A model generated the notes under the pieces. It was not told the origin of the DNA and did not search any database. It saw only the letters and a list, made by a program, of their open reading frames with translations. Both the position numbers and the translations under genes were made by a program. A DNA stretch of 64,000 nt from an uncultured Acidimicrobiales bacterium (GTDB taxonomy: Bacteria; Actinomycetota; Acidimicrobiia; Acidimicrobiales; SZUA-35): positions 462,555 through 526,554 of the forward strand of contig CAVRSZ010000008.1 in NCBI GenBank assembly GCA_963723995.1, given 5' to 3'. Below, one piece after another: positions 13,907 to 32,343 of the stretch. Every line of letters begins with the position of its first letter. Position 1 is the stretch's first letter.

Positions 13907-14007
13907 GATGCCTCCTGAGTGCTGCCGCACACTGATACTAGGCCGATTCGACCGATGGATCGGGACTGTCGGGGGCGGTGCTGGCGCAGACCGGGTTGTG
14001 GGCGGTG

Positions 14008-16274: not shown

Positions 16275-16362
16275 CCCGTGAAGCGTAGGCCAACCGGCAA
16301 CCAAACCCCGTTCGAACCCGCCCCGTCATGAAGACCGTTCGGACGTCGGTCCCGGCCGAGTC

Positions 16363-17478
16363 CTACTCGGTCAGCTCGGCGGCGATTGACGCCGTCGTGG
16401 TGGTCGACGGGAAGTGAGAGCCGACCTCGGCGACCTGGTCGGCCACGTCGAGCACCATCTTCACGTTGCGCCGGGCGATCACCGACGCGTAGGCCGCGGG
16501 CGCATCGGCCAACCGGGCTCGACCATCGATCACGAAGGTCGGATCGAGCGCGCCGCCGACCACCATTCGTTGCAGCCGGGCCCGGGTCGTGATCGGGTTG
16601 CCGATAACAAACGAGAGGTTGAGTTCGTGGGAGAAGCTCTGCGATACGGGCAACGACCAGTCGGGGGCGGCCGGGACACCAACGGAAACCACCCGACCAC
16701 CGCGCCGCACCAGGGCCACGGCGGCATCCAGGGTGGAGACCAGGCCGACGGCTTCGATAACCACGTCGGCCCCGTCACCCTCGGTGATGGCGGCGACGGC
16801 CACCGGGGCGTCGTCGGGTTCGGCCACGAGTGCTCCCTGGGATAGAGCCACGGCCCGCCGGGTGGGGTCGGGCTCGACGACCACGACCGACGCAGCCCCC
16901 ACGGCCAAGGCACAATGGGCGGACAGCAGGCCGACGGCGCCACCCCCGATGACCGCCACAACCTCACCGGCCTGGAACCGGGCCCGCTCGAGCGCCGACC
17001 AGGCGGTTGCCAGGTTGTCGCTCAGGAGAAGGCCTGCCTCGGGCGGACATGACGGGTCGAGCGGGGCGATGCTGGTGTCGGCATGAGGGACGAGCACGTA
17101 CTCGGCCTGGGCTCCCTGAACCGCCGGTCCGAACAGCTGCCCGGTACCGAAGAACCGTCGCTCGGCGCAGTGCCAATGAAGCCCTCGTTCGCACCATCGA
17201 CACCGCCCGCAGGCGGTGAAGTCCGAGGAGAAGACCCGGTCGCCGACGGCGAACGACGCCACGCCGGGACCCAGATCGACCACCCGGCCGACGAATTCGT
17301 GGCCCAGGACCGTTCCCGGTTGGGCACCACCGTGGTTGCCGCCGAGTACGTGGAGATCGGTCCCGCAGATTCCGGCCCACTCGACCTGGACGACGGCGGC
17401 GCCGGGACCGGGCCGCCCCGGTTCGGCCACGTCGATCACCTCCGGCTGTCCGTCAGCGCCGACCGCCACCGCTTTCAT
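16363..17478 (-). CDS. zinc-dependent medium-chain alcohol dehydrogenase
   Basis: MKAVAV...GICGTDLHV...GHEFVGRV...CGRCRWC structural-zinc motif, and GGGAVGL Rossmann motif. Confidence 0.8.
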   Translation of the reverse strand: MKAVAVGADGQPEVIDVAEPGRPGPGAAVVQVEWAGICGTDLHVLGGNHGGAQPGTVLGHEFVGRVVDLGPGVASFAVGDRVFSSDFTACGRCRWCERGLHWHCAERRFFGTGQLFGPAVQGAQAEYVLVPHADTSIAPLDPSCPPEAGLLLSDNLATAWSALERARFQAGEVVAVIGGGAVGLLSAHCALAVGAASVVVVEPDPTRRAVALSQGALVAEPDDAPVAVAAITEGDGADVVIEAVGLVSTLDAAVALVRRGGRVVSVGVPAAPDWSLPVSQSFSHELNLSFVIGNPITTRARLQRMVVGGALDPTFVIDGRARLADAPAAYASVIARRNVKMVLDVADQVAEVGSHFPSTTTTASIAAELTE

Positions 17479-17485
17479 GGACCGG

Positions 17486-18757
17486 TCAACTTTCCGCGAC
17501 GGCGGCGATTCTGGCCGCGATCCGTTCGCCAGCCGTCCGCAGTGCCCGCAGTTCGTCGGGACGAAGTTCGAGGATGACGATCTCGGCCAGGCCGTCGGGC
17601 CCCAAGCGCACCGGCAGACCAACCCGGGCGTCGACAAGCCCGTAGGTCCCGTTGGACCGTACGCAAGCCGTCAGTACCTCCCCGCTGTTACGAACCATGG
17701 CCCGGATCATCGAAGCCGCCGATTCGGCGGGGGAGAAGTAGGCGCTGCCGGTCTTGAGCAGGCCCACCACCTCGGCTCCCGAATCCCGGGTCCGCTCCAC
17801 GATGGCCGAGAGCGTGTCCGAGTCGATGACCTCTTCCACAGGGCGGCCGGCGACCGTTGCCTGGCTCAGCGGGATCACCATCTCCGGCCCGTGGCTGCCC
17901 ATGGCCAGGGCACGAACCTGATCGGGGGCGGCCACACCGGTCAAGCCCACCAGCGAGCAGAACCGGGCGGTGTCCAGCACCCCGGCCATGCCGATGACCC
18001 GGTCATCGGGAAAGCCGGTGGCTGTGGTCATGACGTGGGTCATCTCCTCGAGTGGGTTGGTGACGACCACCACCACGGAGTCGGGCGCGTACGTGGCGAG
18101 AGAGGCTCCAACGCCGCGGATCACCGCCGCGTTGACGTCGGTCAGATCGGTTCGCGTCATCCCCGGTTGCCGTGGTCGGCCGGCCGTGACCACGACGTAG
18201 CGGCAGTCGCTGAGCGTCGACGGGTCCTCGCCGCCGGTGATCCGGGTGTCGAATCGGCACAGTCCGGAGCCGTGCCACATATCGAGGGCGAGACCGGCGG
18301 CCAGGCCGGGCCTAACGTCGACCATCGCCACGTGCCGGAAGAGGTTGCTCTCGGCTAGTCGTAAAGCGGTCATGGCCCCGACGTGGCCGGCCCCGACCAC
18401 CCCGACCTTCAGCCGATCGGACGGCTGAACCGAATCGGCCCGGGGTGGTGAGGACCGGATGACGTCACGCCCCCGCTCGACGCCGGCGGCCAGGGGGGTA
18501 CCCCGCCGGTACATCGCCCCCGATGGAGACAGCGCCACAGTTGGTGAGGCAACCGGACCGGCCCGATCATTCAGGTCCACTACCGGCACCGAGGTCGACC
18601 CGTGGCCACCCGAGCCGCTTGTCGACTGATCGACGTAGCGGATTTCCACACCGAGTTTGTTGGCCAGATCGCGGGCCAACGGAGTCAGGCGGACACCCGG
18701 CCCGACGAGCAGGAAACCGTCGGTTTCCCGAACCTGGTCGGCGGTGATGAAGCTCAT
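17486..18757 (-). CDS. LDH-like malate dehydrogenase with a ~115-aa N-terminal extension
   Basis: The core has VGVVGAGHVG, GRPRQPGMTRTDL (Arg at the specificity position indicates malate) and MGSHGPEM. The N-terminal MSFITADQVRE..GVRLTPLARDLANKLGVEI is followed by a Ser/Gly linker. The ATGA start overlaps the BMC-T stop. Confidence 0.75.
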   Translation of the reverse strand: MSFITADQVRETDGFLLVGPGVRLTPLARDLANKLGVEIRYVDQSTSGSGGHGSTSVPVVDLNDRAGPVASPTVALSPSGAMYRRGTPLAAGVERGRDVIRSSPPRADSVQPSDRLKVGVVGAGHVGAMTALRLAESNLFRHVAMVDVRPGLAAGLALDMWHGSGLCRFDTRITGGEDPSTLSDCRYVVVTAGRPRQPGMTRTDLTDVNAAVIRGVGASLATYAPDSVVVVVTNPLEEMTHVMTTATGFPDDRVIGMAGVLDTARFCSLVGLTGVAAPDQVRALAMGSHGPEMVIPLSQATVAGRPVEEVIDSDTLSAIVERTRDSGAEVVGLLKTGSAYFSPAESAASMIRAMVRNSGEVLTACVRSNGTYGLVDARVGLPVRLGPDGLAEIVILELRPDELRALRTAGERIAARIAAVAES

Positions 18758-19371
18758 TCCCGACCCTCCAACTGATTGAGGGTTGCGACCGCGGCCGAAG
18801 CGGCGGCCTGCACATCGCTTTCGGTTCCACTGATGAACAGGCGGCCGAATCGCCCGACGGCCCGCACCTCGATCAGACGGATGTCGGCCGCCTTCTCCGC
18901 TTCGTTGGCAGCCAACGCGACGTAGGCGGCAGGCGCCACCTCCAGGATGTAGAGACTCGAGCCTGGTATCAACAGGTTGCCTTTGCGCCACTTGTTGATG
19001 AGCTGGGCCTGGTACGGATCGACATTGGTGATGAACTGCGATCCGGCGACCTGCGGCTTCACCCGGTCAGCTTCGGTCAGGCCCAGGTGTTCCAGCACCG
19101 CTGCTCCAGCGGCCAGAACCTCGGCCTGGCCACGGGCGTGGATCTCGAGCAGCCCGAATTCCCGCTCCACGATCTGCAAAGCAGGGCGGACGTCGGCCGC
19201 CTTGAGCGCGATGTCAGAGCAGCGGAAGATTTCGTTGCCGGGAGCGGCCTCGATGAACAACTCTGCCATCCCGGCCACCGGCACGTCACCCTGACACGTG
19301 GCAGCCACATGGGCCGCAGCTTGGGGCTGCATGCGGTCCACAAAGGCATAGGTGCGAAGTTGGAAGTCCAT
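18754..19371 (-). CDS. tandem BMC-domain shell protein (BMC-T type)
   Basis: 205 aa; LRTYAFVDRMQPQ... is a permuted-BMC style N-terminus. Two BMC-like halves are present (..DIALKAADV.., ..ANEAEKAADIRLIEV..). Its start shares a base with the EutJ stop. Confidence 0.7.
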   Translation of the reverse strand: MDFQLRTYAFVDRMQPQAAAHVAATCQGDVPVAGMAELFIEAAPGNEIFRCSDIALKAADVRPALQIVEREFGLLEIHARGQAEVLAAGAAVLEHLGLTEADRVKPQVAGSQFITNVDPYQAQLINKWRKGNLLIPGSSLYILEVAPAAYVALAANEAEKAADIRLIEVRAVGRFGRLFISGTESDVQAAASAAVATLNQLEGRE

Positions 19372-20156
19372 CAGCGTTCTCCAGTGGCGTGTCCGGGGCT
19401 CTGCTGTCCAGGCGACCGTCGGTCCAGACTCTGGGCGATCCCGAACGGCGTGATCAGATGGGCGTTCGGATAGGAGAGGGTCCGCCATCCAAGTCGATCG
19501 GCCACAATCCGATCGGCGCCGCCCAGCAACAGTGCACCACCGGCCAGGTGCACGGGACCAGGATTTGTACCACCACACTGGGAACGAATCGACTCGGCGA
19601 TCCGCTCGATCCCCGGGGTCAAGATGGCCACGTACGATTCGCCTTCGGTGCGCTTGGCCCGCTCCGCATCCTCGATCGACATGCCAAGGGCCCCGGCCAG
19701 AATCAGATCGAGGTAATGGCCGCCCCCGGCCCGATCGGTCAGCGACGTCAACTCACCGTTCCGGTAGACCCCCACTCCGGTCGACCCCCCACCAACGTCG
19801 ACGACGGCCCCGTCGATCACGCCAAGGACGACCTGGGCGGCCGAGATCTCGTCGGTCACACCGCGACAGTCGATACCGGCCTGCTCCACCACATAACGAC
19901 ACGCCCGTCGGTCGGCCACCGGAACTCCCGGCGGGGCTGCCGTGGCGGCATCGGTGACCTCAACGCCCAACGCGACCTCAGCCTCGTTGACCAGCGCTTG
20001 AGCGGTTGCCGCGGCAGCGGCGAAATCGACAACGACCCCGTCGCGCACAGCCTGAACCGATCGAGCGTCCCACCACACCGGTTCACCGACGGCATCGACG
20101 GCGCACAGGACGATGGACGCCGTCCCGAGGTCGAGGCCGAATCGCAGGTCGCCCAT
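19371..20156 (-). CDS. eutJ: EutJ-like actin/Hsp70-fold ATPase
   Basis: FGLDLGTASIV..., VVDVGGGSTGV..., LAGGALLLGG, the classic ASKHA phosphate and adenosine motifs, at ~260 aa as for EutJ. Confidence 0.8.
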   Translation of the reverse strand: MGDLRFGLDLGTASIVLCAVDAVGEPVWWDARSVQAVRDGVVVDFAAAAATAQALVNEAEVALGVEVTDAATAAPPGVPVADRRACRYVVEQAGIDCRGVTDEISAAQVVLGVIDGAVVDVGGGSTGVGVYRNGELTSLTDRAGGGHYLDLILAGALGMSIEDAERAKRTEGESYVAILTPGIERIAESIRSQCGGTNPGPVHLAGGALLLGGADRIVADRLGWRTLSYPNAHLITPFGIAQSLDRRSPGQQSPGHATGER

Positions 20157-20254
20157 CCAGGTATCCGGTGGGCAACGGTGACGATCACCGGCCCGTGACA
20201 GGAAGGCGTCGACGTCGCCCGTCCGCAGGGCGCAGGGTTCGCAGTCGAGGTTGA

Positions 20255-21679
20255 TCACATCCCCATCCCCGGCTTGTAGAGGTCCCGCCAGGGCCGGTTG
20301 GCGTGGGCCACCCGTTTGATGTTGATGAGGTGCAGAGGGGTAACGTTGTCGGACACAATCGAACCACTCCATGTTCCGGTCCCCAGCATGAACGACGCGT
20401 CCGTCCCGGCCGTGTACCCCATACCACCGAACAGGCTCGGCGTGTTGATCACGATGCGGGAGGCGGGCAGTCCGGCGACCTGGGCCACGACCTGGGGATC
20501 GGCGGCGTGAAGGCCGACCGTGTGGCCCTCACCGCCGAAGCGCAGCACCTCCAGGCACTTGGCCACTCCGGCGCCCACGTCGGGCGTGCGATAGAACGAC
20601 AGGACAGGCCCCAGAATCTCGGCTGAGAGCGGCTCATGGGGGCCGACGTCGGTCAACTCGGCGGCCAGCACTCTTGTGTCGGTGGGCACGGTGACTCCGA
20701 TGCGGCGGGCCAACTCGACCGCGCTTTGACCGACGTGGTCGGGATGGTTGGCTCCGGAATCGGTGAACAACAGCCTGGCCAGGCGTTCCTGGGCCGGGCC
20801 GTCGAGGAAGAACGTGCCGTGATCGGCGAAGGCGGTGATGGCGGTCCTGGCGATGGGTTCGTCGAGCACCACAGACTGTTCGGCGACACACGCCGTGCCG
20901 TTGTCGAAGGCCTTGGATGTCACGACCATCAACGCCGCCTCGGCGACGTCGGCCACAGACCGGTGTATGTATACCGGAACATTGCCGGCACCGACTGCCA
21001 GTGTCGGCTTTCCCGACGAGTAGGCGGCCCGAACCATGCCGGCTCCCCCGGTGGCCATGACCAGAGCCGTATGCCGGTGGGCCATGAGCTCACTGGTCGC
21101 GGTGAGGGTCACCCGGGACAGGCAGCTGACGAGACCCTCCGGCGCACCCGCTCGTTCGGCGGCATCGGCCATCACCTCGACCGTTCTGACGCAGCAGCGT
21201 GCGGCACGGGGGTGGGGGGCGCAGACGATGGCATTGCCGGATTTCACTGCAGCCAGGCACTTGAAAATCGTGGTCGACGTAGGATTGGTGACCGGGATGA
21301 TGCCGGCGATGACGCCCATTGGTGCACCGACTGCGGTGACCCGGCGGGCTTCGTCGACCCAGAGCACGCCCAGCGTCCGCATGGATTCCATCGACCTGGC
21401 CACCACCGTGGAGTTGTAGAGGTTCTTCAGGATCTTGTCCTCGTACACGCCGTAGCCGGTTTCCTCGGCGGCGAGCTTCGCCAGCTCATCCGCAGCATCG
21501 GACGCGGCTGCCGCCATGGCCGCGACCAGGTGGTCGGCGGTTTCCTGGGAGACACCTTGGAACTGATCGAAGGCCCGGTGGGCTCGGCCGACCAGCGTGC
21601 GTGCCTCGGCGATGGAGTCGAGTTCGATGTCCTCGTAGCGCGAGACGTGATGCTGCGTGACTCGCTGGGTGTTCGTCAT
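20255..21679 (-). CDS. CoA-acylating aldehyde dehydrogenase (EutE/PduP type)
   Basis: 474 aa; IIPVTNPTST, FDNGTACVAEQS (catalytic Cys) and GGEGHT motifs. Confidence 0.85.
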   Translation of the reverse strand: MTNTQRVTQHHVSRYEDIELDSIAEARTLVGRAHRAFDQFQGVSQETADHLVAAMAAAASDAADELAKLAAEETGYGVYEDKILKNLYNSTVVARSMESMRTLGVLWVDEARRVTAVGAPMGVIAGIIPVTNPTSTTIFKCLAAVKSGNAIVCAPHPRAARCCVRTVEVMADAAERAGAPEGLVSCLSRVTLTATSELMAHRHTALVMATGGAGMVRAAYSSGKPTLAVGAGNVPVYIHRSVADVAEAALMVVTSKAFDNGTACVAEQSVVLDEPIARTAITAFADHGTFFLDGPAQERLARLLFTDSGANHPDHVGQSAVELARRIGVTVPTDTRVLAAELTDVGPHEPLSAEILGPVLSFYRTPDVGAGVAKCLEVLRFGGEGHTVGLHAADPQVVAQVAGLPASRIVINTPSLFGGMGYTAGTDASFMLGTGTWSGSIVSDNVTPLHLINIKRVAHANRPWRDLYKPGMGM

Positions 21680-21761
21680 CCCCGTCCTTCCTCGGTTGAA
21701 CTCCGCTGGCCGCCTTGGGCCGAGCGAGCTCGTCGGCTACCAGTAGAACCGCCGGCGCCAA

Positions 21762-22058
21762 TCAATCCCGACCCAGGACGACGCTTTCGACCTCGTCATG
21801 GGGCCTCGGTATGACGTGGACCGACACGATCTCGCCGACTTTGCCGGCCGCCGCAGTGCCGGCATCGGTGGCCGCCTTCACCGCTCCGACATCACCGCGC
21901 ACCATGACGGTTACGAGTCCGCCACCGATCTGCTCGCGTCCGATGAGGTGGACGTTGGCCGCCTTGACCATGGCGTCGGCGGCCTCGATGGCCGCCACCA
22001 ATCCACGGGTTTCGATGAGGCCGAGCGCACCTCTGTTGCCATCCGGCGTTGCTGCCAT
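21762..22058 (-). CDS. BMC-H hexameric shell protein
   Basis: [26 protein letters not shown]...[17 protein letters not shown]...HVIPRPH canonical BMC domain; the ATG at 22058 was chosen within the 169-aa ORF. Confidence 0.9.
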
Positions 22059-22122
22059 GGTCTTGCGTCTCCTTGTTCGTTGAGCGGTTGTCTGGTTCTG
22101 ATCGCTCGCCGCCTTGTCGACG

Positions 22123-22438
22123 TCACTCCTTGAAGTACGTGACGTGGCCGTCGAACGTGACCGAATCGACGATCCCGACGACGGCGGCATCGGTCGGTAC
22201 GCCGATGCCACCGGTATCGATCCGGGCTGCGCTCCCCCTGGTGACCACGACGATCTCGTCGGCCCCGGCACCGGCCAGGTCGACGGCGATGTAGCAGTCG
22301 CCGGACGCGCTCGTCGCTCGACCCGTCGGTCTCGAGACGAGTCGGATGCAGGTCTTCAACCAGGAGGAGCTTGTGGCTGGACAGCTTGTCGGCCTTGATC
22401 GAACTGACCACATTGCCTCGAACTCGTGCCAGCTTCAT
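22123..22438 (-). CDS. BMC-P (EutN/CcmL-type) pentameric vertex protein; frame disrupted near 22299-22321
   Basis: The N-terminus [28 protein letters not shown] is in one frame and the C-terminus [25 protein letters not shown]...VVGIVDSV is in another. The span is 316 nt, not a multiple of 3. Confidence 0.75.
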
Positions 22439-22506
22439 CCGAACCCCCGGTCCTGCGTTTCACCCAAACGTAAGACAGGCGTTCAGGGGATTCACTATCT
22501 CACCGA

Positions 22507-22531
22507 GACAACAAACCGATGATTTGTTGTC
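22507..22531. promoter_or_regulatory. perfect 9-bp inverted repeat in the divergent BMC promoter region (operator candidate)
   Basis: GACAACAAA-CCGATGA-TTTGTTGTC, centred in the 182-bp intergenic region between the two divergent BMC operons. Confidence 0.5.
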
Positions 22532-22620
22532 CCCCACGGCGCTGGATCACCTTGGCCGATCGTTCTTATCGTTGGTCAACGGATCTCACCGATTGAACCA
22601 GAAGCGATTAGGGGGCTCAT

Positions 22621-23652
22621 GTGATTCAGGACGTGGATGCTGAATTCCATCCGGCGGAGGACGATCCTACCTGGGCCGAGACGAACTACTTCGGCTTCTT
22701 CAACGCCGAACACCATCTCAACGTCGGGGTGTATGCCCTGTTTCGGCCCAATCTCGGCATCGTCGGTTCGACGGTCTGTATCAACAGCGGTCGCTGTGTG
22801 ACGCCGTGGGAGTCCGATTTCTCCGATCTACGCTCATCGCTGCCTATTCCGGAGCCACGCAGCCTCCTCGACTATCGCCTGCTGAACAGCTTGCATGTGC
22901 GGTGTACCGATCCAAATCAGACCTGGCTCATCCACTACGACGACGGCGAGGGAACGGCTATCGACGTCACCTGGGACGCACTGATGCCGGCGTTCGACAT
23001 TCACGATCCGGGAATGGATCCCATGTGTGCCAAGGCGACCGAGGCCACGGATGCCGGCAAGTTCGCGTGGGGCACCGCCTACAACGGGCACTTCGACCAG
23101 ACCGGCCGAGTTCGGGGAACCGTGTCGGTTCGTGGGACGTCGCACGCCATCGATTGTGTCTCGACCATGGATCACTCCTGGGGCCCCCGCCCCGAACGGG
23201 GCAAACCCAATATGAGCTGGCTCCACGCCCACTTCTCCGAGGATCTTTCGATGCACGCCATCTTCGGGTTCGACCCGATGCGCAATGGCACCGAACTGTG
23301 GCTGGCCCACGGCTACGTACTCGACAGGGGAACGGTGCACGGGCTCAAGGCGGGAACCGGCACGGTGGAGCGTCACCAGGAGCGCTATCCCGAGTCGGTC
23401 GAGTTGCGCGTCACCGACTCGAGCGATCGAGACTTCACCCTGAAAGGTCAGGCACTTACCACGTTTCCCTGGCAATGCTGGCCCAACATGGTGGCCTTCA
23501 ACTCGCTGGCGGAATGGACCATCGACGGGCCGGACGGAGCAGATCGGGCCGGTACCGGTCACGGCGAGATCATGGACTTCTTCGAGGTCCCGCAGTTGAC
23601 CCTTCTCAACAGCAATCCCGGGACCGCCCGGCCTTCACGGCCCCGGGGGTAG
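22621..23652 (+). CDS. hypothetical protein (343 aa), first gene of the plus-strand BMC-associated operon
   Basis: GTG start preceded by AGGGGG, with good GC3. It is Trp/His-rich and looks beta-rich (..WAETNYFGFF.., ..DHSWGPRP..). No family was recognised with confidence. Confidence 0.6.
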   Translation: MIQDVDAEFHPAEDDPTWAETNYFGFFNAEHHLNVGVYALFRPNLGIVGSTVCINSGRCVTPWESDFSDLRSSLPIPEPRSLLDYRLLNSLHVRCTDPNQTWLIHYDDGEGTAIDVTWDALMPAFDIHDPGMDPMCAKATEATDAGKFAWGTAYNGHFDQTGRVRGTVSVRGTSHAIDCVSTMDHSWGPRPERGKPNMSWLHAHFSEDLSMHAIFGFDPMRNGTELWLAHGYVLDRGTVHGLKAGTGTVERHQERYPESVELRVTDSSDRDFTLKGQALTTFPWQCWPNMVAFNSLAEWTIDGPDGADRAGTGHGEIMDFFEVPQLTLLNSNPGTARPSRPRG

Positions 23653-23654
23653 CG

Positions 23655-24662
23655 ATGCCCAGAGGCGCCATCCTGTTCGACTTCGACGGAACCCTGGTCG
23701 ACACCCGCCAGGCATCGTGGGAGTTGTTCGCCGAGACCAACGAACTGTTCGGGCTCGGGGTGGACAGCCGCGATGCCTTCTTCCGGATCTTCCGGAACAA
23801 CTTCCACGAGTCGTTCGAGGCGCTGAGCTCGGATGCCGATCACATTCGACAGGCCAAGCAGCACTTCATGACGGCGCTGACCGAGCGGTACCGGCCCAGC
23901 CTCATCCCTGGCATCGTCGACGTCATCCGGGCACTCACGCCGAGCTACACCCTGGCCGTGGTGTCGTCCAACGCCATGCCGGTCATCCGCCGGGTACTGG
24001 AGGGCGCCGGGCTGGCCACCTGCTTCTCCCACGTCTTCTCCGGTGATGTGGAGCCGAGCAAAAGTGCCGTGATCAAGCGCTTCATGGCCGATCAGAGCTA
24101 CGCCTCGCTCCGCCACTGCGCACCCAGCTACGTCGACACGCCCAGGCCCCGTCTGGTGGATGACGCCGTTTTCATCGTCACCGACACCGTTGGCGACGTC
24201 GAAGAGGCGCGACGGGTCGGCATTCGAGCCGTCGGGGTGTGCTGGGGCATGCACGACGAGGCGAGCCTCCGGGCGGCCGGAGCCGAGACGGTCATGGTCT
24301 GGCCCCAGGAGCTCGAGGCCTTCTTCGTCGGGGCACAGGACGAGGTCCCCGATACGTGCCGCCTCGGACCCACCCCGGCCTCGCCGGCCGACGCCGAATC
24401 GGACTCCGGCGCCGATGACAGCTGCACCACCGGCGTCTGCCGATGCCACACGGCCGGTGGCCAGGGCGAGTCGTCCCCCCGGCGGGCCGAGGTCCGATCA
24501 GCGGTTCGTCTACGGGCCCGCCTGGCCGCACCGATGGCCACGCCGCTGACGCCGCCGGTCGAGGTTCCGGTTCGCCTTGGGCCGGGCACCGAAGTGGGCC
24601 ATAACCGTCCAGCCATTGACCCCGAGCTGCTGGAGGCCCTTCGCCTCACCGCGGTTCCGTGA
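23655..24662 (+). CDS. HAD-superfamily phosphatase with a ~110-aa C-terminal tail
   Basis: ILFDFDGTLVDT (DxDGT), VVSSN and TDTVGDVEEA motifs. The tail is low-complexity and ends in the amphipathic IDPELLEALRL. Confidence 0.75.
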   Translation: MPRGAILFDFDGTLVDTRQASWELFAETNELFGLGVDSRDAFFRIFRNNFHESFEALSSDADHIRQAKQHFMTALTERYRPSLIPGIVDVIRALTPSYTLAVVSSNAMPVIRRVLEGAGLATCFSHVFSGDVEPSKSAVIKRFMADQSYASLRHCAPSYVDTPRPRLVDDAVFIVTDTVGDVEEARRVGIRAVGVCWGMHDEASLRAAGAETVMVWPQELEAFFVGAQDEVPDTCRLGPTPASPADAESDSGADDSCTTGVCRCHTAGGQGESSPRRAEVRSAVRLRARLAAPMATPLTPPVEVPVRLGPGTEVGHNRPAIDPELLEALRLTAVP

Positions 24663-24758
24663 CCGGGCAAGGCACACGAGCAAGCCGCCGTCGGAGCCAA
24701 CGAATTCACCAACCAACAGACAAACCAGGGACTCAGCGCCACAGAAGGGGATTCATCC

Positions 24759-25175
24759 ATGACATTCATAGCCGAAGGTTTCAACAGCTTCGAGACGGAC
24801 AAGGTGCCGGAAGGAACGATCGTCTTCCTACCCGACCCGAAGTCGGTCATCGACTTGATCAATTCGGGCGAACTCGACAAGCACATCGTGCTGGCCCAGG
24901 GAGGGACGACCACGTTTCTCTCGCCAGTGCTCAGCATGGGCTGCATCGGGGTGATCACCCTCTCCGGAGCACCCGAGTCGCACCTCGGCATTCTCTCCCG
25001 GGAGTTCCAGATTCCGTGCGTGATGACGGCATACCTGACCGAGAGCGACTCCCGCTACGAAACCGGCGGCGACAACGCCGCCCACTTCGACGCCATGATC
25101 TCAACCCTCAACGGCAAGCGGGCGCGACTCCATTGCAGCGACAGCGAAATCGGCCGAATCGAACTGATCGATTAG
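24759..25175 (+). CDS. stand-alone PEP-utilising-enzyme mobile (swivelling phosphohistidine) domain protein
   Basis: 138 aa; ...GVITLSGAPESHLGILSREFQIPCV matches the GG.TSH.AI.ARE.GIP pattern around the phosphocarrier His. Confidence 0.7.
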   Translation: MTFIAEGFNSFETDKVPEGTIVFLPDPKSVIDLINSGELDKHIVLAQGGTTTFLSPVLSMGCIGVITLSGAPESHLGILSREFQIPCVMTAYLTESDSRYETGGDNAAHFDAMISTLNGKRARLHCSDSEIGRIELID

Positions 25176-25192
25176 AAGGGGCAAACAGAATC

Positions 25193-26602
25193 ATGGCAAA
25201 TTACACCAAGCGATACGAGGAAAACGACGAAGGGCTCCGCTTCCAGGACCTCCAGTACGTCGGAAACTTCAAGGACCTTCCGCCGGTGCCGGACGGTATT
25301 CTCGGCGACCGGATGATGCGGCAACGAGCCAAGTCCAAGGTACTGGAAAGGGTCTCACACGAAGATGTGCTCAAGGACCAGTTCACCATTGACGAGCTGA
25401 ACGATCTCAACAACTACCTGGCGTGGAACATCTGGGACGTGCTGGTCATGCGTGCCACCGAGGGCGAGTCGGGCATGATCCCCCGCCAGCAGTACGAGAT
25501 TCTCGCCTTCATGAACGAGTTCTATCGTTGGCCGGAGATTTTTCAGATGGCGACCGACGAAGTGGGAGCCCAGGGCATCATCGACATCGGCGCCAGCGCC
25601 CGCCGGGAGATTGGGACCAAGGTCAACTGTGTGCACGATTGGTGCATCGGTGCCGTCGGTTTCGGCATGGGCCGCTGCGGTCTCTTGGCGCTCGAAGTCA
25701 TCGAGCCCGACGACTACATCGCCGAGAGCAACACCATCCTCAAGTTCATGCAGCGGGTGCTGTGGGGCAAGCGCCAGGACGGTTACATCCTCAACTCGCA
25801 GGACCGGTACCGCTGCCAGATCCACGAGGACGACTTCCTCCAGCCGCTCATCGACCAGATGGAGCACTTCGAAAAGGGCAGCCCCGCCCACGACGAGTTC
25901 ATGCGGTTCAACGCCACCGCCGAACTACTGTCGTTCCTCGATCACTACGACTGCCGCCTCGGTCTCGGTGACACCGGACCCTATCCGCTGCCCAACGGCA
26001 ACATCCTCATTGTCCGGGACCTGTTCACCAACGAGGAGGTCTACCACTGGAGCGACGTCTGCGACCACGAGAACGTGCCCCACTGTTACAGCTTGCTGCT
26101 GGAAATCGACGCCGAGGCCATGGGGCTTGACGAGATCCGGGTGAATGACATCTCGACCACGTTCACCCGGCCCAAGAACTACATCCCGTTCGTGCGGTCC
26201 GGAGCCGTCTTCGTTCGGGAGAAGTGGAACACCCCGATGTCGGAGGTGTACCAGGTGCCGATCAGCGACCTGGGTGACCATCTCACCCGGGTCCAGAACG
26301 CGACCTTCAAGCTCTACTCCAAGACGTCGAAGATGAGTCGGCGCCAGCTCATCACCAACGGCCTGTACGTGTACTACATCGACATGATTCTGCCCCACCT
26401 CCGATTGGCCGGCGTCTATGAGAAGGCCTGCCAGGATCTGAATTTCTGGGAGATCGACCGGCGGGTGTCCAATTACTACTACGAAATCGACAAGCGTGGA
26501 TTCGCCCAGGAGACCGTGCCGATGAAGATCTTCTCCGGCGCGGGCTACCTGCCGTTCTCGGACGGGGCCCGCCTCACCCGGTCGAAGTATTTCCATACAT
26601 GA
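25193..26602 (+). CDS. hypothetical protein (469 aa), no recognisable family, lower GC than its neighbours
   Basis: The ATG at 25193 has a spacer to the previous gene. The sequence is non-repetitive and rich in Tyr, Trp, Cys and His, and its stop overlaps the next start (ATGA). Confidence 0.65.
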   Translation: MANYTKRYEENDEGLRFQDLQYVGNFKDLPPVPDGILGDRMMRQRAKSKVLERVSHEDVLKDQFTIDELNDLNNYLAWNIWDVLVMRATEGESGMIPRQQYEILAFMNEFYRWPEIFQMATDEVGAQGIIDIGASARREIGTKVNCVHDWCIGAVGFGMGRCGLLALEVIEPDDYIAESNTILKFMQRVLWGKRQDGYILNSQDRYRCQIHEDDFLQPLIDQMEHFEKGSPAHDEFMRFNATAELLSFLDHYDCRLGLGDTGPYPLPNGNILIVRDLFTNEEVYHWSDVCDHENVPHCYSLLLEIDAEAMGLDEIRVNDISTTFTRPKNYIPFVRSGAVFVREKWNTPMSEVYQVPISDLGDHLTRVQNATFKLYSKTSKMSRRQLITNGLYVYYIDMILPHLRLAGVYEKACQDLNFWEIDRRVSNYYYEIDKRGFAQETVPMKIFSGAGYLPFSDGARLTRSKYFHT

Positions 26603-27168
26603 TCGACGACACCGAATTCGCCGTTCTCAACGCCCTTCACCTCAAACGGATGGCGACGGTGGCCGATGTGGCGGCGATCACCGGGTTGTCGACAACCACT
26701 GCCGAGTCGGTGGTCGACCGAGCCTCCTTCGATGGTCTGGTCGCCCCGACTCCGGCAGGGGTCATGCTCATGCCGGAGGGCACCGAGGCGGTGCTGGCCT
26801 ACTACAACGAGCGGTACGGCGAGCATCGTGGCGATCCCGCCCTGGAGAGGTGGTACGAGCGGTTCGAGGAACTGAACACCGGGTTCATCGCCGAGATCTC
26901 GGAGTGGCAGAAGTCGGGTCACGACGCGAACGTGTTGGAACGAGCGATTCGATTCGTCGAGCGGCTCACCCGCATGATCGAGGACCTGGTGCCGGACATC
27001 CACCGGTATCAACGGTACGTGGAGCGATTCAACCAGTCGATCGAGCTGGTCGACGCCGGTGAGACGGACTACGTCACCAAGCCGACAAAGGACTCACTGC
27101 ACAACATCTGGTTCGAGTTCCATGAGGACATTCTCTCCGTGCTCGGGAGGCCGAGGGACACGACCTGA
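26599..27168 (+). CDS. hypothetical protein (189 aa) with a possible N-terminal winged-helix domain
   Basis: FAVLNALHLKRMATVADVAAITGLSTTTAESVVDRASFDGLV resembles a MarR-like wHTH; the remainder is helical. Confidence 0.5.
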   Translation: MIDDTEFAVLNALHLKRMATVADVAAITGLSTTTAESVVDRASFDGLVAPTPAGVMLMPEGTEAVLAYYNERYGEHRGDPALERWYERFEELNTGFIAEISEWQKSGHDANVLERAIRFVERLTRMIEDLVPDIHRYQRYVERFNQSIELVDAGETDYVTKPTKDSLHNIWFEFHEDILSVLGRPRDTT

Positions 27169-27177
27169 CGGAGAATC

Positions 27178-29661
27178 ATGACATCGTCCAGAGCACCTAC
27201 CGTCTTTCAAATCGATGAGGTCGACGGCACGGACAGCGCTCGGTTCGGGGGCAAGGGTGCCGGGCTGGCCCGTATGACCGCCGCCGCGCTCTCCGTACCC
27301 CCTGCCTTCGTGATCAGCACCGACGGCTTTCGCCGGTGGAGCGAAGGCGATGGCGGGATTCCGGCATCGCTTGATGCCGAGATCCGCGGGGCGATGGCCG
27401 AACTGGAGCGTCGATCGGGGCGAACCTTCGCCGACTCCGGTGGTCTGCCACTGCTGGTCTCGGTTCGCTCCGGGGCTGAAATCAGCATGCCCGGGATGAT
27501 GGACACCGTCTTGAACGTCGGCATCACCGGCGCCAGCGCCCACGCCCTGGCCGACGCCACCGGCCGACCGGCGTTTGCCTGTGACACCCTCATCCGCTTC
27601 TGGCATATGTACACCGAAATCGTGCTCGGTGACGAGCTGCCGGTGTCGACTCTGGCGGAAGCGGCAGCGGTCCAAGCTCGGTGCAATCCGACCGTCAACG
27701 CCTTTGTCGCACTCGAAGCTGCGCTCGTGGCCCAACTCACCGAGCGGGGTCACGACATCCAGGGCGGGGCCGTCGACCGCCTGATGGCGACCGTGCTGGC
27801 GGTGTTCGAGTCATGGAACAACCGTCGGGCTCGCACCTACCGGCGCCACCACGGTATCCCCGATGACCTTGGGACTGCCGTCGTCGTCCAGGCCATGGTC
27901 TATGGCAACCTCAATGACAGGTCCGGGTCGGGCGTGGCCTTCTCCCGAGATCCCAACACCGGCGCAGCTGCGGTGTACGGCGAGTACCTCACCGGTCGAC
28001 AGGGCGAGGACATCGTCTCCGGGTCGGAGACCCCTGTTCCCCTCGACGATCCCCGGGGACTGGGCGAGGAGCTGCGATCGGAGCTGCTCGACGTGGCTCG
28101 AACGTTGGAGCAGATGTACCGTGACGCCGTCGATATCGAGTTCACCGTCGAAGACGGTCGCCTGTACCTGCTCCAGGTTCGGCCCGCCAAACGGACCGCC
28201 GAGGCCGCAGTCCAGATCGCCCTCAGTGTCATCGAGGAAGGCACCGTCGAACCGGTAGAGGGGCTTCGACTCGTTCAAACCGAGCAGCTGGTCAACGCCC
28301 TACGCCCCGTCTTCGCTCCCGATGCGGTTGCCACCGCCACGCTGCTGGCCGACGGTGTCGCCTCCTCGCCCGGCAGCGCGGTCGGCGAGGCTGTGCTCGA
28401 TGCAGATCGAGTGGTGGCCAGAAGCAGCGACGGGGTGGCGGTCATCCTGCTCCGTCCCATCACCAGCCCGCTCGACATTCAGGGCATGTTGGCCGCCGAG
28501 GCCATTGTCACCGCCCGAGGAGGCGCGCTGAGTCACGCTGCGGTGGTGTCCAGGGCGCTCGACAAGCCTTGCGTGGTCGGTTGTAGTGCCATCACGGTCA
28601 ACCCTGAGCAGGGCTGGTTTGAGATTGGCGGCAGGCGCTATGAGGAAGGCACCGTTATCTCGGTCGACGGCTGGGCCGGCCATGTCTACGAGGGCGCGTT
28701 GCCCCATCAGGCCTCGCGGGGCGAGACGGAGTCGGTTGCCCGCCTGCTGTCGATCGCCGACCAGGTTTCAGGCTGTGACTACTGGTTCGCCTCCTGGCCG
28801 CCAAGCGGTGACACGCCGCTTCCACCGGCGACGGGAGTCGGACCCCTGCCGCTGACCGATCTCGTCATCAATGTCGGCCTCCTTGATGAGCTCGTGGCCG
28901 AGATCGACCGTTTCACCGACGACTCACAGCAGATCGAAGCCCGAGAACGGCTGCGCGATATCGCTGCGCAGGCCACCGCCCAAGTCCTGGAATCGGCCGT
29001 CGGCATGGACGTCCACATCCGGCTCCCCCACCTCGGGTCCCCCCGCGCCCAACGGCTCATCAGTGACTGGACCGGAATGGCCCCCCAGCTGCTGTTGCCC
29101 ATGGGAATGCCGGCGCTTCAGCAGGCCCTTGTTTCCGGCATCGCGTCGGCCGCCGACGAACACCCGCCGAGTTCGCTGTGCGTGCTCATCGCCGGCGTCA
29201 CGGCACCCGGGGAACTGGCCGCCTTCGCCGAACTCGCACGCGGGGTCAGGGACGATCTCGCCGTCGGGGCGGTCGTCGGCAGTCTTGCCGGACTGGAGTC
29301 GGTGATCGACATGACCAGAGCAGGGCATCCGGTGTGGCTCGACATGATCGAACTGATCCGCTCATTCCACGGTTTCCCGAGCGCTCTCACGCTGGCCGGC
29401 GATGTGCTCGGGGCCTACGTCGAAGCCGAGATGTTGAAGTCCAACCCCCTGACGGTGCTGCCGCCGTCGCTGAGTCGAGGATTGGCCGATGCGCTCGTCG
29501 AAGAGCCGGCCGCTCGTGGTATCGGCCTAATCCAGGCGACCAGGCTTTCACCGGACATCGTGATCGAGCTGCGCTCGGCCGGCCTCGCGGTCCTCTCCCT
29601 GGATCCGGAGAGAGCCGGTGCTGTGCGACTCCTGTTGGGCCAGGCGGGCGGCGATGGGTGA
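27178..29661 (+). CDS. pyruvate phosphate dikinase-like enzyme: intact ATP-grasp N-domain and phosphohistidine domain, divergent C-terminal domain
   Basis: [54 protein letters not shown] and [25 protein letters not shown]-terminal residues ~505-827 lack the RTEHMF-type and C-terminal Cys motifs I expect in PPDK. Confidence 0.75.
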
Positions 29662-29947
29662 ATCGATCGGTACCGCGCTCGGTCTGGTCGAGACCAGAGG
29701 CATGGCCGCAGCCATCGAAGCGGCCGATGCCATGGTCAAGTCGGCGAACGTCAGGCTCGTCACCAAACAGCGCCCCGGCGGTGGCATCATCACCATCATC
29801 GTCCGTGGAGACGTGGGGGCGGTGCAGGCGGCGGTGGATGCAGGCGTTGCCGCTGCATCATCGGTCGGGCAGGTCCTGGCCGCCAAAGTCATTCCTCGCC
29901 CGGCTGATGAGATCGACGGCATTCTGCGGCGCCCCCCGGTTCGGTAG
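29654..29947 (+). CDS. BMC-H hexameric shell protein (second copy)
   Basis: [26 protein letters not shown]...[17 protein letters not shown]...VIPRP. Its ATG overlaps the end of the PPDK-like gene by 8 nt. Confidence 0.9.
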
Positions 29948-30045
29948 AGAGGATTTTTCTCCGCCCACGATCGGCCACTACGCTTCGTTGTTGGCGTCGA
30001 CCCGCGGCCGGGTCGGGCCTCGGCGGCAACAGGAGGCGTAGGCCG

Positions 30046-32343
30046 GTGACGTCAGGTCGAGCCCGCCAGCGGAATCGGACGGGTGTTGATGCCATTCCAG
30101 GTGCGGATGTTTCGCCGGTGAATCGATCGCAACCGGCGGATGTCGCCTCGCTGATCGCCGAGCTGGATTGGTCGTCCGACACGGGCCAGCGGGCGGCCAA
30201 GCGGATTGCCGAGCTGGTTGCGATGGTCGCCGGCGTGGCCGCCGCCGTTGTAGCCCTCGACGGTGACCGCTGGCGATTGGTGGCGCAGGATGGACTGCCG
30301 CGGCCCGCCACCTGGACCAACGGCAGCGATCTGTCCGAAATGAAGGACCTGTGCACTGTCGAGGCGGTCGAGGCCGCTCTGCCCCTGCGGGCCGACACGA
30401 TTGCCGGGATCAACGAGATCGCCATCGGCGGCGTTTCCGCGATTCTGATGGCCCCGGACCTCGGCCCGGACGGCGTCGTGATTGTCGGTGACCCGGGCCC
30501 TCACCGTCCGTTCATCGAGCTTGTGAATTCGGCGGTGGCGAGCATACGGCTACGGAGGGAACTGAACGCGCGGTTGGCCGGTCTTTCCGAGGAACAGATC
30601 GAGATCACCCGGCTGCTGGCCATTCGTGACGTCGATCAGCTCTTGCTGTCGACGGTCAACACAGCCAACCGGTTGATCGACGGTGACATGGCCGGCGTGA
30701 TGCTCGTTGATCGAGACGATCTTGTGATGGAGTGCTGTGTCGGTAATCGTAGTCGGCGCACCGAGCAGCTGCGCTTCTCCAAGGGCCAAGGCGTCGCCGG
30801 CTTGGTGATGGAACGGGGTGAACCATGTAAGGTCGACGACTATTTGCAGAGCCGTGTTATCACCCACCACTTTGATTCGCTGGCCCGGATCGAGGAAACG
30901 AAATCGGCGTTGGCCGCACCGTTGGTGGTGGAGGCCAAGACCATCGGTGTCCTCGAAGTCTGGCGGCGGCGGCCTTCGGTGTTCAGTGAGGCCAACGTTC
31001 GCCAGCTGGTGACGCTGGCCAACCTGGCCGCGATCGCCATCGACAATGCCAGGCTGCACGCCCTCAAGGCGGACAGTCTCGAGCGCCTGGCCCTGACAAC
31101 GGAGTCGCTCAGCCGCCAGCTCAGCACGATCGAGCAGGCCCGCTCCACCCAGACGACGCTGAGTCAATTGCTGCTCCAGGGCGAGGGAGTCGGCTCGATA
31201 TGCCGGGCCATTGCCTCCAAGCTCGACGCCGAGGTGGCACTGCTGTCATCCGAGCTCCAGGTGATGAGCAGGTGGCCTCAAGACCTGGATGTCGACGACG
31301 TCGTGGCCCGGCTCCGCGCCCTCCCCGGTGTTGATCGCCCCGGCGCCGAGCAGCTGAGCGTGCAGTTGGAGCCTGGCCGGTGGCTGGCCGCCCAGGCGGT
31401 CCGGGCGGGTTCCGATCATCTCGGCTGGTTCTGTGTGGTGCTTGCCGACGAGCCCCAGATCGGCGAAGACCTGGTGATCGGCGAGGCCGTCACGGTGACC
31501 GCCCTGTGCCAAATCATGGAGCGGACGGCCGAGGCGGCCCGGTCCGGTGAGCGGGAGTCCCTGGTCTGGAACCTTATCGAGGGGCCGATTGCTCAGCGTC
31601 GTGCCGCCGTCGATCGAGCCCGTTGGCTTCGCGTCGACCTCAGCCGGCGACGTCGACTTGTTCGAGGTGAGATCGTACCCAGCTATCCGTCGCGTCGGGT
31701 GACCTGGGACGAAGCCGAGTACGAGCGGGCGCGTCAGCGGGTACTGGCAAAGGTTCGGAGCGCGGCCATGACGCTCGGTGTGGGCGAACTGGTGGCCATC
31801 CGGGGCAATGACCTGGCTCTCATTGTGCCCGATCGTGATCTGCCGACCCTGCGTGACATGGTGGCGCAACTCGATGAGGCGGCCGCCAGTGTGCTGTCGG
31901 GCCACAGCGTGGCCTGGGGTGTCAGCAACCCCTGCAGCAACCTACTTGAACTCGACAGGGCCAACGACGAGGCGATCTCCGCTGTCCGGGCCGCTGTTCG
32001 GCTCGGTTTGGACCATACTGCGATGTATCAGGATCTCGGCGTCGTCCGACTCATCGTGTCGGACGACGATGGCGATCTTCGCCAGTTTCTCCACGACATC
32101 ATCGGTCCCCTGCTCGAGCACGACGCGGAACGCAACAGTGAACTCGTCGACACCCTTCGGGCCTACTTCGTCACCGACTACTCCCACCAGCACGCGGCAA
32201 ACCTGCTCCACATCCACCACAAGACGTTCGGATACCGGCTGGCCAAGATCGAGTCACTCACCGGCCTTGACATGCGCAGCCACGACGGCCGCATGCGGGC
32301 CGACCTCGCCCTCAAGCTGCACGACGTTGCCAACGGTCCGTAG
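30046..32343 (+). CDS. GAF-domain / PucR-family transcriptional regulator
   Basis: 765 aa. It has a GAF-like block (..GVAGLVMERGEPCKVDDY..LAAPLVVEAKTIGVLEVWR..) and a C-terminal PucR HTH (LVDTLRAYF....AANLLHIHHKTFGYRLAKIESLTG). Confidence 0.75.
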   Translation: MTSGRARQRNRTGVDAIPGADVSPVNRSQPADVASLIAELDWSSDTGQRAAKRIAELVAMVAGVAAAVVALDGDRWRLVAQDGLPRPATWTNGSDLSEMKDLCTVEAVEAALPLRADTIAGINEIAIGGVSAILMAPDLGPDGVVIVGDPGPHRPFIELVNSAVASIRLRRELNARLAGLSEEQIEITRLLAIRDVDQLLLSTVNTANRLIDGDMAGVMLVDRDDLVMECCVGNRSRRTEQLRFSKGQGVAGLVMERGEPCKVDDYLQSRVITHHFDSLARIEETKSALAAPLVVEAKTIGVLEVWRRRPSVFSEANVRQLVTLANLAAIAIDNARLHALKADSLERLALTTESLSRQLSTIEQARSTQTTLSQLLLQGEGVGSICRAIASKLDAEVALLSSELQVMSRWPQDLDVDDVVARLRALPGVDRPGAEQLSVQLEPGRWLAAQAVRAGSDHLGWFCVVLADEPQIGEDLVIGEAVTVTALCQIMERTAEAARSGERESLVWNLIEGPIAQRRAAVDRARWLRVDLSRRRRLVRGEIVPSYPSRRVTWDEAEYERARQRVLAKVRSAAMTLGVGELVAIRGNDLALIVPDRDLPTLRDMVAQLDEAAASVLSGHSVAWGVSNPCSNLLELDRANDEAISAVRAAVRLGLDHTAMYQDLGVVRLIVSDDDGDLRQFLHDIIGPLLEHDAERNSELVDTLRAYFVTDYSHQHAANLLHIHHKTFGYRLAKIESLTGLDMRSHDGRMRADLALKLHDVANGP

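Follow-up and report, generated by a model that had tools for sequence, protein, structure and literature searches.

The stretch analysed here, a 64,000-nucleotide window of contig CAVRSZ010000008.1 (assembly GCA_963723995.1) from an uncultured Acidimicrobiales bacterium, holds a bacterial microcompartment (BMC) locus made up of two divergent operons. The locus is almost certainly an Acidimicrobiia-lineage member of MIC1, a catalogued type of metabolosome for which we found no functional assignment in the searchable literature. We propose that its plus-strand operon may encode an ATP-driven machine, composed of a dikinase and a lyase, that gives an aldehyde, a reading suggested by gene content and structural modelling in which our confidence falls a little short of even. 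A more specific version, put forward tentatively, is that MIC1 encloses a cofactor-free, ATP-driven dehydration of a small tertiary alcohol or vicinal diol, e.g. 2-methyl-1,2-propanediol or a relative. By Pfam and NCBIfam, the minus operon runs from BMC-P through BMC-H, a CoA-acylating aldehyde dehydrogenase (AldDH), an EutJ-like protein, BMC-T and a lactate/malate dehydrogenase (LDH/MDH)-type enzyme to a Zn-dependent alcohol dehydrogenase (Zn-ADH). The plus operon runs from a 343-aa DUF7065/DUF7064 protein through a HAD-family phosphatase, a stand-alone phospho-His swivel, a 469-aa protein, a 189-aa protein, a pyruvate, phosphate dikinase (PPDK)-like enzyme and a second shell protein, BMC-H2, to a GAF-GGDEF_2-PucR regulator. 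Genes were called from an open reading frame listing, Pfam and NCBIfam scans and coordinate mapping, with starts refined against orthologues, and they agree in identity and position with every gene listed in an earlier note on this DNA. That note had also remarked on the lack of a phosphotransacylase (PTAC) and of any known signature enzyme, and indeed the 16 proteins of the locus have no Pfam match to PduL/Pta phosphotransacylases, nor to diol or glycerol dehydratases, EutBC, a glycyl-radical enzyme, an aminotransferase/APH pair or an aldolase.

MIC1 stands for “metabolosome with incomplete core 1” (Axen 2014, PMC4207490; Sutter 2021, PMC8217296). Its members include Methylibium petroleiphilum PM1, Nakamurella multipartita and Pseudonocardia dioxanivorans, and it was described as holding an AldDH, dehydrogenases of the LDH/MDH and Zn types, a hydrolase, a phosphatase as well as a protein resembling MreB, without PTAC and without signature enzyme; each MIC1 genome in Table S2 of that study has two BMC-H, one BMC-T and one BMC-P (Axen 2014, PMC4207490). 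The later catalogue keeps the type, reports a BMC-specific N-terminal extension on the pfam02866 enzyme of MIC1 and MIC2, places MIC1 T proteins among BMC-T(dp) in its trees and, in describing MIC2, points to RMM1 as the characterised type closest to it in AldDH phylogeny and to MIC1 as MIC2's closest relative (Sutter 2021, PMC8217296). Our assignment rests on synteny and on identity to reference members. The window has an AldDH of the MIC1 clade, the same shell complement (three Pfam BMC matches and one EutN match, making two BMC-H, one BMC-T and one BMC-P), both dehydrogenases, the hydrolase/phosphatase, the MreB-like protein and the extension on the MDH-type enzyme. The plasmid locus of PM1 has PucR, Zn-ADH, MDH, BMC-T, EutJ, AldDH, EutM and EutN on one arm and a hypothetical protein (DUF7064), HAD, “pyruvate, phosphate dikinase” and a BMC domain protein on the divergent arm; since PM1 carries the dikinase gene followed by a shell gene, both belong to the reference MIC1 locus. 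Identity to PM1 is 75% for AldDH (74.7% over residues 17-474), 85% for BMC-T, 70% for DUF7064, 47% for the PPDK-like protein and 72% for BMC-H2. The AldDH is 65-85% identical to those of close-relative loci from our genome scan and 59% to that of Rhodococcus locus L075, other BMC AldDHs reaching at most 45%. BMC-T is also about 49% identical to BMC-domain or hypothetical proteins of Nitrobacter and Thiodictyon plasmids. The closest relatives of the whole locus, at 85-95% identity, are in metagenome-assembled genomes (MAGs) of Acidimicrobiia (L001, P0001).

The window thus shares with MIC1 reference members the shell set, the AldDH, the extended LDH/MDH, the Zn-ADH, the EutJ/MreB-like and HAD proteins and the order of PPDK then BMC-H, as well as the lack of PTAC and of a canonical signature enzyme; it differs in its host lineage, in having the regulator on the plus-operon side and in a BMC-P gene that is frameshifted in the assembly. 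Classification against the BMC catalogues, which the earlier note had recommended, therefore does not leave its “divergent” and undescribed type standing, as gene content, order and identities all match MIC1. The same note had seen its novelty at risk should the locus match a described type of assigned function: the type is a described one, whereas a function is what we could not find for it. The published MIC1 text does not discuss the dikinase, 469-aa and DUF7064 genes, the Sutter supplements hold no PPDK pfam numbers that we could find and no new description of MIC1, and no paper found in the searchable literature links a BMC to PPDK. The catalogue type “ACI”, considered as an actinobacterial type, was rejected, as it denotes Acidobacteria and is unrelated.

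The synteny survey combined an AldDH scan of one genome per species with tblastn searches using each of the fifteen window proteins. The 15-gene arrangement is met again in Actinomycetota and three proteobacterial classes (Alpha-, Beta- and Gammaproteobacteria): it is complete in Variovorax, other Burkholderiales/Betaproteobacteria, five Bradyrhizobium species, a Steroidobacteraceae MAG, and Sporichthyaceae and other Actinomycetota, it is found on two plasmids (of Rhodococcus oxybenzonivorans and PM1), and Rhizobacter and a gammaproteobacterial MAG agree as far as their contig-limited loci reach. The PPDK-like gene keeps its position in 17 loci (those of the two plasmids and 15 that the genome scan gave), and seven further loci end at contig boundaries. 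A PucR homologue of 31-37% identity accompanies most complete loci, on one flank of the cluster or the other, with none detected in L020, and at least 11 metagenomic contigs appear to hold both 469-aa and 343-aa homologues, judging from matching longest-contig sizes. Because the plus operon and the shell genes are syntenic in so many genomes, the arrangement goes far beyond chance, and the two operons belong together. The earlier note had suggested looking for syntenic loci in other Actinomycetota and had made its case depend on co-conservation of the plus operon with the shell genes; such loci are found there, and the co-conservation holds across four bacterial classes. In a type-B variant, seen in two Burkholderiales MAGs (L005 and L006), the swivel, 469-aa and 189-aa proteins are divergent paralogues at 31-45% identity, and their genes run in the order 469-aa, an unknown of 153-163 aa, swivel, 189-aa. 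A reduced arrangement occurs in L017, where BMC-H2 and HAD adjoin BMC-P with no DUF7064 gene between them.

The PPDK-like protein retains the front half of a dikinase. Its residues 9-527 match PPDK structures at E 1e-113, covering the nucleotide and phospho-His domains, and the phospho-His motif is conserved in orthologs. A profile of the C-terminal 300 residues still matches the PEP/pyruvate barrel of PPDK (PEP, phosphoenolpyruvate) at E 4.5e-9, with catalytic positions that read SLTD, Q, R/E and E in the profile alignment; these replace what we take to be Arg561/RTEH, Glu745, Asn768/Asp769 and Cys831 of C. symbiosum PPDK. The protein exceeds the NCBIfam cutoff of the short PPDK model PRK05878. 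We read it as a predicted dikinase head on a barrel that has probably lost pyruvate/PEP chemistry, and reject a canonical PPDK (EC 2.7.9.1) on account of the degenerate C-terminal barrel. Like the other His-swivel dikinases (PPDK, PEP synthase, phenylphosphate synthase and rifampin phosphotransferase), it combines an ATP-grasp with a phospho-His swivel. In phenylphosphate synthase the acceptor-binding part is a separate module, as proposed here. The window system is unlike its relatives in its degenerate pyruvate/PEP barrel, in having two swivels and in an acceptor module (the 469-aa and 189-aa proteins) that is a new family without structural relative.

That the stand-alone swivel, the 469-aa and the 189-aa proteins probably form parts of one enzyme is indicated by fusion proteins of 772-794 aa found elsewhere, which carry, in order, a swivel (N-terminal PEP-utilizers), a 469-aa domain and a 189-aa domain, as do three consecutive genes here. 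In one of these fusions (P0136), the window swivel aligns at the N-terminus with 52% identity (E 9e-28) and the 189-aa protein aligns to the C-terminal 185 residues with 28% identity (E 6e-19). The swivel's phospho-His motif, GAPESHLGILSR, is invariant in orthologs. The 469-aa protein itself has no match in Pfam, NCBIfam or the PDB (phmmer and a profile search against the PDB), and a Foldseek search with its AlphaFold2 model (pTM 0.81, pLDDT 74) gave nothing significant, with sub-threshold Bet v 1/START-like fragments alone. The family is a rare one, comprising only 275 clusters out of 1.84 billion representatives, and no other enzyme of the locus is as well conserved (69-81% identical between classes). 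The 189-aa protein had been listed as a separate unknown with winged helix–turn–helix (wHTH) likeness: the weak HTH matches are there, and the fusions make it a probable domain of the swivel/469-aa enzyme, which also led us to reject a free transcription factor. The searches advised for these two proteins thus placed the 189-aa one, through P0136, and left the 469-aa one without a relative of known structure. A plasmid of Rhodococcus pyridinivorans P23 (pA, 370529-384580; L082) holds distant 469-aa relatives in paralogous pairs of a “PEP-utilizing enzyme” and a hypothetical protein, adjoining a 580-aa PPDK-like gene and genes for biotin carboxylase and biotin carboxyl carrier protein (BCCP), a context that hints at a wider family of multi-component dikinases. 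Other distant homologues were uninformative in this respect: P0125 and P0133 are on contigs too short to show a neighbourhood, and the Novosphingobium record carries no annotation.

The 343-aa protein supplies the candidate for the lyase. Sequence and profile searches gave no PDB match for it. Its AlphaFold2 model (pLDDT 87.7, pTM 0.87) has the double beta-barrel fold of the 25-phosphosteroid lyase/AttH-CrtC-kievitone hydratase group, with Foldseek matches at E 1e-14 to 6e-9, probability 1.00 and TM 0.53-0.63. Its invariant residues include several Arg and His (among them R42, R171, H185, R190 and R193). The top matches are structures of 25-phosphosteroid lyase (25-PSL; 9g4c, 9fzn and 9g2i, E 1e-14 to 4e-13, TM about 0.6), product and phosphate complexes among them, followed by kievitone hydratase, the AttH protein and the Fsa2/Phm7 pericyclases (Diels-Alderases). 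25-PSL acts on a tertiary alkyl phosphate, the product of an ATP-dependent kinase, and eliminates its phosphate; the two enzymes together carry out an ATP-dependent dehydration of a tertiary alcohol via a phosphoester (PMC8449060, PMC11061730). Structure prediction of this protein, another check that had been advised, thus points to a candidate phosphate-eliminating C-O lyase. None of the proteins that the earlier note had left unnamed matches a canonical signature-enzyme family, and a non-canonical candidate signature enzyme lay among them. The cascade of 25-hydroxysteroid kinase (25-HSK) and 25-PSL in Sterolibacterium denitrificans resembles our proposal in its ATP-dependent dehydration via a phosphoester and in the fold of its lyase; it differs in having a steroid side-chain substrate, an alkene product and no microcompartment, and in its kinase, a 40-kDa enzyme of the phosphotransferase family, unlike the His-swivel dikinase of the window. 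The idea that 25-HSK might be a PPDK-type enzyme was rejected on the same ground.

The HAD protein is nearest to the NCBIfam models for phosphoglycolate phosphatase and PpaX, all below cutoff. Its largely conserved tail consists of a Cys-rich motif, a basic RRxRR stretch and, after a low-complexity linker, a terminal amphipathic xELLxALRRI-type helix that looks like an encapsulation peptide (EP). The Cys-rich element, of CxC, CxCxC or CxxC form and followed by RRxRR in the window (24300-24662) and in orthologues, lies upstream of this helix and could be a metal site or a shell-binding element. On the dikinase parts no clear encapsulation peptide was seen.

Taken together, these parts suggest the following scheme. 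The PPDK-like protein would use ATP to load its phospho-histidine, from which the phosphoryl group would pass, directly or via the second swivel, to a hydroxyl acceptor bound on the 469-aa subunit of the three-part enzyme; the acceptor would be a hydroxyl compound of small size, a tertiary alcohol or vicinal diol being the most plausible. Removal of phosphate by the 343-aa protein would follow, leaving an enol or a rearranged cation and, from it, an aldehyde; from a vicinal diol, above all one whose carbinol is tertiary, an elimination or pinacol-type shift would yield the aldehyde. Inside the shell, the acylating AldDH would turn the aldehyde into acyl-CoA, the Zn-ADH would reduce part of it and the MDH-type enzyme would re-oxidise NADH, with the HAD protein, which bears the EP-like tail, hydrolysing pyrophosphate (PPi) or clearing mis-phosphorylated dead-end products and the GAF-PucR protein regulating both operons. 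We infer here which way phosphotransfer runs, that the acceptor is an alcohol, that elimination leads to an aldehyde, what the MDH and HAD proteins do, and which proteins are encapsulated. The outline of phosphorylation, elimination and aldehyde formation had been a speculation of the earlier note, and it gains support from the likeness of the 343-aa protein to a phosphate-eliminating lyase and from the conserved His motifs.

A comparable logic operates in RMM1, in which the aldehyde (propionaldehyde) is made from aminoacetone/1-amino-2-propanol by a kinase and a phospho-lyase. RMM1 likewise phosphorylates a hydroxyl and then eliminates phosphate to an aldehyde, has no PTAC and has BMC-T(dp) shells; it differs in using an APH-type kinase and a PLP-dependent (pyridoxal phosphate) aminotransferase-class lyase, and neither an RMM1-type APH kinase nor a class-III aminotransferase-like phospho-lyase has a Pfam match in the window locus. 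With the Pdu, Grp and Eut metabolosomes the locus shares the aldehyde core of AldDH and ADH in a BMC-H/T/P shell and an EutJ-like protein. It lacks their radical enzyme, B12 enzyme, reactivase and PTAC, and its proposed aldehyde-forming step would be ATP-driven and cofactor-free, unlike their B12 or glycyl-radical dehydratases and ammonia-lyase.

Similar combinations are found outside microcompartments. On plasmid pROB02 of Rhodococcus opacus B4 and on a metagenomic contig, a fused swivel-469-189 gene lies beside a gene for a 555-570-aa protein with PPDK_N and swivel domains, in clusters that also encode a P450 with ferredoxin and reductase, an AldDH, a Zn-ADH, APH-type kinases, a tyrosine-phosphatase-like protein and a 372-aa hypothetical protein. 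The last of these bears a weak likeness to DUF7065 (Pfam E 0.0017; hhalign E 4e-4, a D-x-S-W-G-x-R motif included). Because these Rhodococcus-type clusters hold the same combination without a BMC, a dikinase with the novel acceptor enzyme, a phosphatase, a DUF7065-like protein, an AldDH and an ADH make up a recurring unit. Plasmid RPME01 of PM1 holds two MIC1 copies. In the type-A locus (L077 22152-22762), the swivel gene is degraded and the 469-aa gene is reduced to its first ~100 codons. The second, partial copy (L076 6324-17130), flanked by insertion sequence elements and partly decayed, has BMC-P fragments, DUF7064, HAD fragments, type-B swivel, 469-aa and 189-aa genes and PucR, and is placed directly upstream of the genes for 2-hydroxyisobutyryl-CoA ligase and mutase, which belong to the MTBE (methyl tert-butyl ether)/tert-butanol pathway. 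This position fits, and does not prove, a link to tertiary-alcohol metabolism.

Several observations weigh against our proposal. The likeness of the 343-aa protein to 25-PSL is at the level of the fold alone (14-16% identity, TM about 0.6, no sequence or profile match), and the same fold also hosts hydratases and Diels-Alderases. The model of the 469-aa protein is of medium confidence. The known 25-HSK belongs, as noted, to the phosphotransferase family rather than the dikinases, and a pathway with two swivel domains lacks a simple precedent. The type-B loci L005 and L006 have no PPDK-like gene in the operon, and L017, a 5-kb contig from an Alphaproteobacteria MAG, has no DUF7064. The Arg loop of the MDH-type enzyme suggests a dicarboxylate (oxaloacetate-like) substrate, which the scheme explains by cofactor recycling only. 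With no PTAC, CoA recycling is left without explanation.

Among the alternatives, the one that fares best, and that we nevertheless consider unlikely, is an enol- or phenol-type activation, in which the dikinase would phosphorylate the enol of a ketone such as acetone or acetol and the 343-aa protein would be a hydratase or isomerase. PEP synthase phosphorylates the enol of pyruvate, and phenylphosphate synthase phosphorylates phenol; the known acceptors of the dikinase family, PPDK included, are presumably all enolisable ketones or phenols. Such an activation would also suit the biotin carboxylase and BCCP genes beside the distant 469-aa paralogues of R. pyridinivorans, the genes for a thiamine-pyrophosphate enzyme and 2-hydroxyisobutyryl-CoA mutase beside the type-B copy of PM1, and the standing of kievitone hydratase and AttH as the next-best fold matches of the 343-aa protein. 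However, the phosphate lyase is the better match, its E-value being lower by some four to five orders of magnitude, the MIC1 core has neither a carboxylase nor a carbonic anhydrase, and an enol phosphate gives no obvious aldehyde for the AldDH.

A second alternative, decidedly improbable in our view, runs the phosphotransfer in reverse to replace PTAC and an acyl kinase, passing acyl-CoA-derived phosphate via the His swivels to AMP and PPi to make ATP while freeing CoA in the shell. This would account for a MIC1 without PTAC, PPDK chemistry is to our understanding reversible, and the 469-aa protein, having no assigned chemistry, sets no obstacle; 25-HSK, too, is fully reversible (PMC8449060). 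Yet it leaves no role for the lyase-fold protein or the phosphatase with the EP-like tail and no source of aldehyde for the locus, the module is also present in non-BMC clusters with P450 and APH kinases, and we estimate the energetics, roughly, to be near zero.

It is less probable again that the locus is decaying and non-functional in this host, for which the frameshifted vertex-protein gene would be the main sign. BMC-P, taken as a single reading frame in the earlier note, is not intact in the window: its EutN match is split, with residues 1-33 and 23-83 in different frames of a 316-nt gene span, and we place the shift near window positions 22295-22315. The degraded swivel and the 469-aa gene cut to about 100 residues in the type-A locus of PM1 illustrate that MIC1 loci can decay. 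However, all other 15 genes are intact here, a single-base indel is typical of assembly error, and in an independent assembly (a Logan contig), where the 343-aa neighbour is identical, the EutN gene is intact, with 315 nt encoding 104 aa, and the spacer is likewise 182 nt; since the intact gene lies beside an identical neighbour, the extra base is probably an assembly error or a strain polymorphism. Finally, an ordinary housekeeping or anaplerotic PPDK, loosely tied to the microcompartment and supplying PEP and, via MDH, oxaloacetate/malate, is very improbable: it has on its side the public annotation “pyruvate, phosphate dikinase”, the PRK05878 score and the MDH-type Arg loop, and against it a barrel without the canonical PEP/pyruvate catalytic residues, the lack of a PEP carboxylase, the coupling to a shell gene with which the enzyme is syntenic across classes, and its swivel, 469-aa and 189-aa partners.

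If the reading of a dikinase and a lyase is true, it would supply the missing aldehyde-generating step of MIC1, a type listed since 2014 without signature enzyme, PTAC or predicted substrate, and would define both a signature-enzyme class new to BMCs, found in Actinomycetota and Proteobacteria of soil and freshwater, and the function of a rare, very conserved orphan family (469-aa) and of the BMC-associated DUF7064/DUF7065 proteins. It would also represent an oxygen-tolerant, B12-independent and radical-free route from recalcitrant (tertiary) alcohols or diols to aldehydes. Should it be wrong, the locus simply adds a further member to a catalogued type. Culturable carriers of the locus or of its signature genes are Variovorax, Bradyrhizobium, Paraburkholderia, R. 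oxybenzonivorans and M. petroleiphilum PM1.

The coordinates of the locus are collected in the table. Many gene junctions show overlaps of 1-8 nt, as operons would show; the 189-aa gene start overlaps the 469-aa gene stop by 4 nt, and the ATG of BMC-H2 overlaps the stop of the PPDK-like gene by 8 nt (ATGGGTGA). The order of these last two genes is repeated in syntenic loci, and BMC-H2 is translationally coupled to the PPDK-like gene, in keeping with the physical coupling of a shell gene to this enzyme that the earlier note had stressed.

Features of the MIC1 locus, in window positions.
Feature	Position	Strand	Basis
Zn-dependent alcohol dehydrogenase (371 aa)	16363-17478	-	Pfam ADH_N and ADH_zinc_N
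LDH/MDH-family dehydrogenase, N-terminal extension of ~110 aa	17486-18757	-	Ldh_1_N/Ldh_1_C
BMC-T shell protein (205 aa, tandem BMC domains)	18754-19371	-	Pfam BMC
EutJ/MreB-like actin-fold ATPase	19371-20156	-	Weak PilM/FtsA/MreB/DDR/HSP70 Pfam matches
CoA-acylating AldDH	20255-21679	-	Pfam Aldedh
BMC-H shell protein 1, basal type, KAAN/PRPH motifs	21762-22058	-	Pfam BMC E 9e-30; motifs from translation
BMC-P (EutN/CcmL) vertex protein, 1-nt frameshift	22123-22438	-	EutN_CcmL profile in two frames
Divergent intergenic spacer between operons, putative promoter region (182 nt)	22439-22620	.	Spacing equal in independent contig
DUF7065/DUF7064 protein (343 aa), candidate phosphate-eliminating C-O lyase	22621-23652	+	Pfam; AlphaFold2 and Foldseek
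HAD-family phosphatase, C-terminal tail with encapsulation-peptide-like helix	23655-24662	+	HAD_2
Stand-alone phospho-His swivel (138 aa)	24759-25175	+	Pfam PEP-utilizers
469-aa novel-family protein, proposed acceptor-binding/catalytic dikinase subunit	25193-26602	+	No Pfam match
189-aa wHTH-like protein, putative third part of swivel/469-aa enzyme	26599-27168	+	Weak HTH Pfam matches
PPDK-like dikinase (827 aa), PPDK_N, swivel and degenerate PEP/pyruvate barrel	27178-29661	+	Pfam; PPDK structures
BMC-H shell protein 2, KSAN/PRPA variant	29654-29947	+	Pfam BMC E 6e-29
GAF-GGDEF_2-PucR transcriptional regulator	30046-32343	+	Pfam

The best NCBIfam matches of the AldDH are acetylating enzymes of the EutE/AdhE type, and its catalytic motif, FDNGTACVAE, is invariant across orthologs. 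The Zn-ADH, whose start was set at MKAVAVGADG by ortholog alignment, is kept in all complete MIC1 loci, and the EutJ/MreB-like orthologues of the PM1 and Rhodococcus loci are annotated as eutJ. The LDH/MDH-type dehydrogenase exceeds the cutoff of the NCBIfam malate dehydrogenase model PRK06223, and its Arg loop, PR[QK]PGM[ST]RTDL, is present in all orthologs except L005 (no motif match). Its extension, putatively EutQ/cupin-like, consists of a conserved N-domain of ~45 aa, an Ala/Pro linker and an LPPSGAMYRR motif; in R. oxybenzonivorans it is encoded as a separate 128-aa gene (L075 21144-21530), and so behaves as an independent domain.

The surroundings of the locus vary. On the minus side the window has two MFS transporters and an LppX/LprAFG-type lipoprotein (11269-16304, minus strand) and on the plus side a GH3 beta-glucosidase and a tannase/feruloyl esterase (32373-38005); comparison of these flanks with those of eight other MIC1 loci found no conserved flanking genes and so gave no substrate clue. 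In the Steroidobacteraceae MAG (L070 16547-18247, minus strand), and in that locus alone, a gene of the linalool dehydratase/isomerase family (Pfam Ldi E 2e-68, with a signal peptide) sits between Zn-ADH and PucR. On the R. oxybenzonivorans plasmid pRB98, the stretch just upstream of the plus operon (L075 3035-11384) encodes an NAD(P)/FAD-dependent oxidoreductase, an alpha/beta hydrolase, a VOC protein, a second AldDH, an ADH and an AMP-binding protein, which may form an upstream catabolic module.

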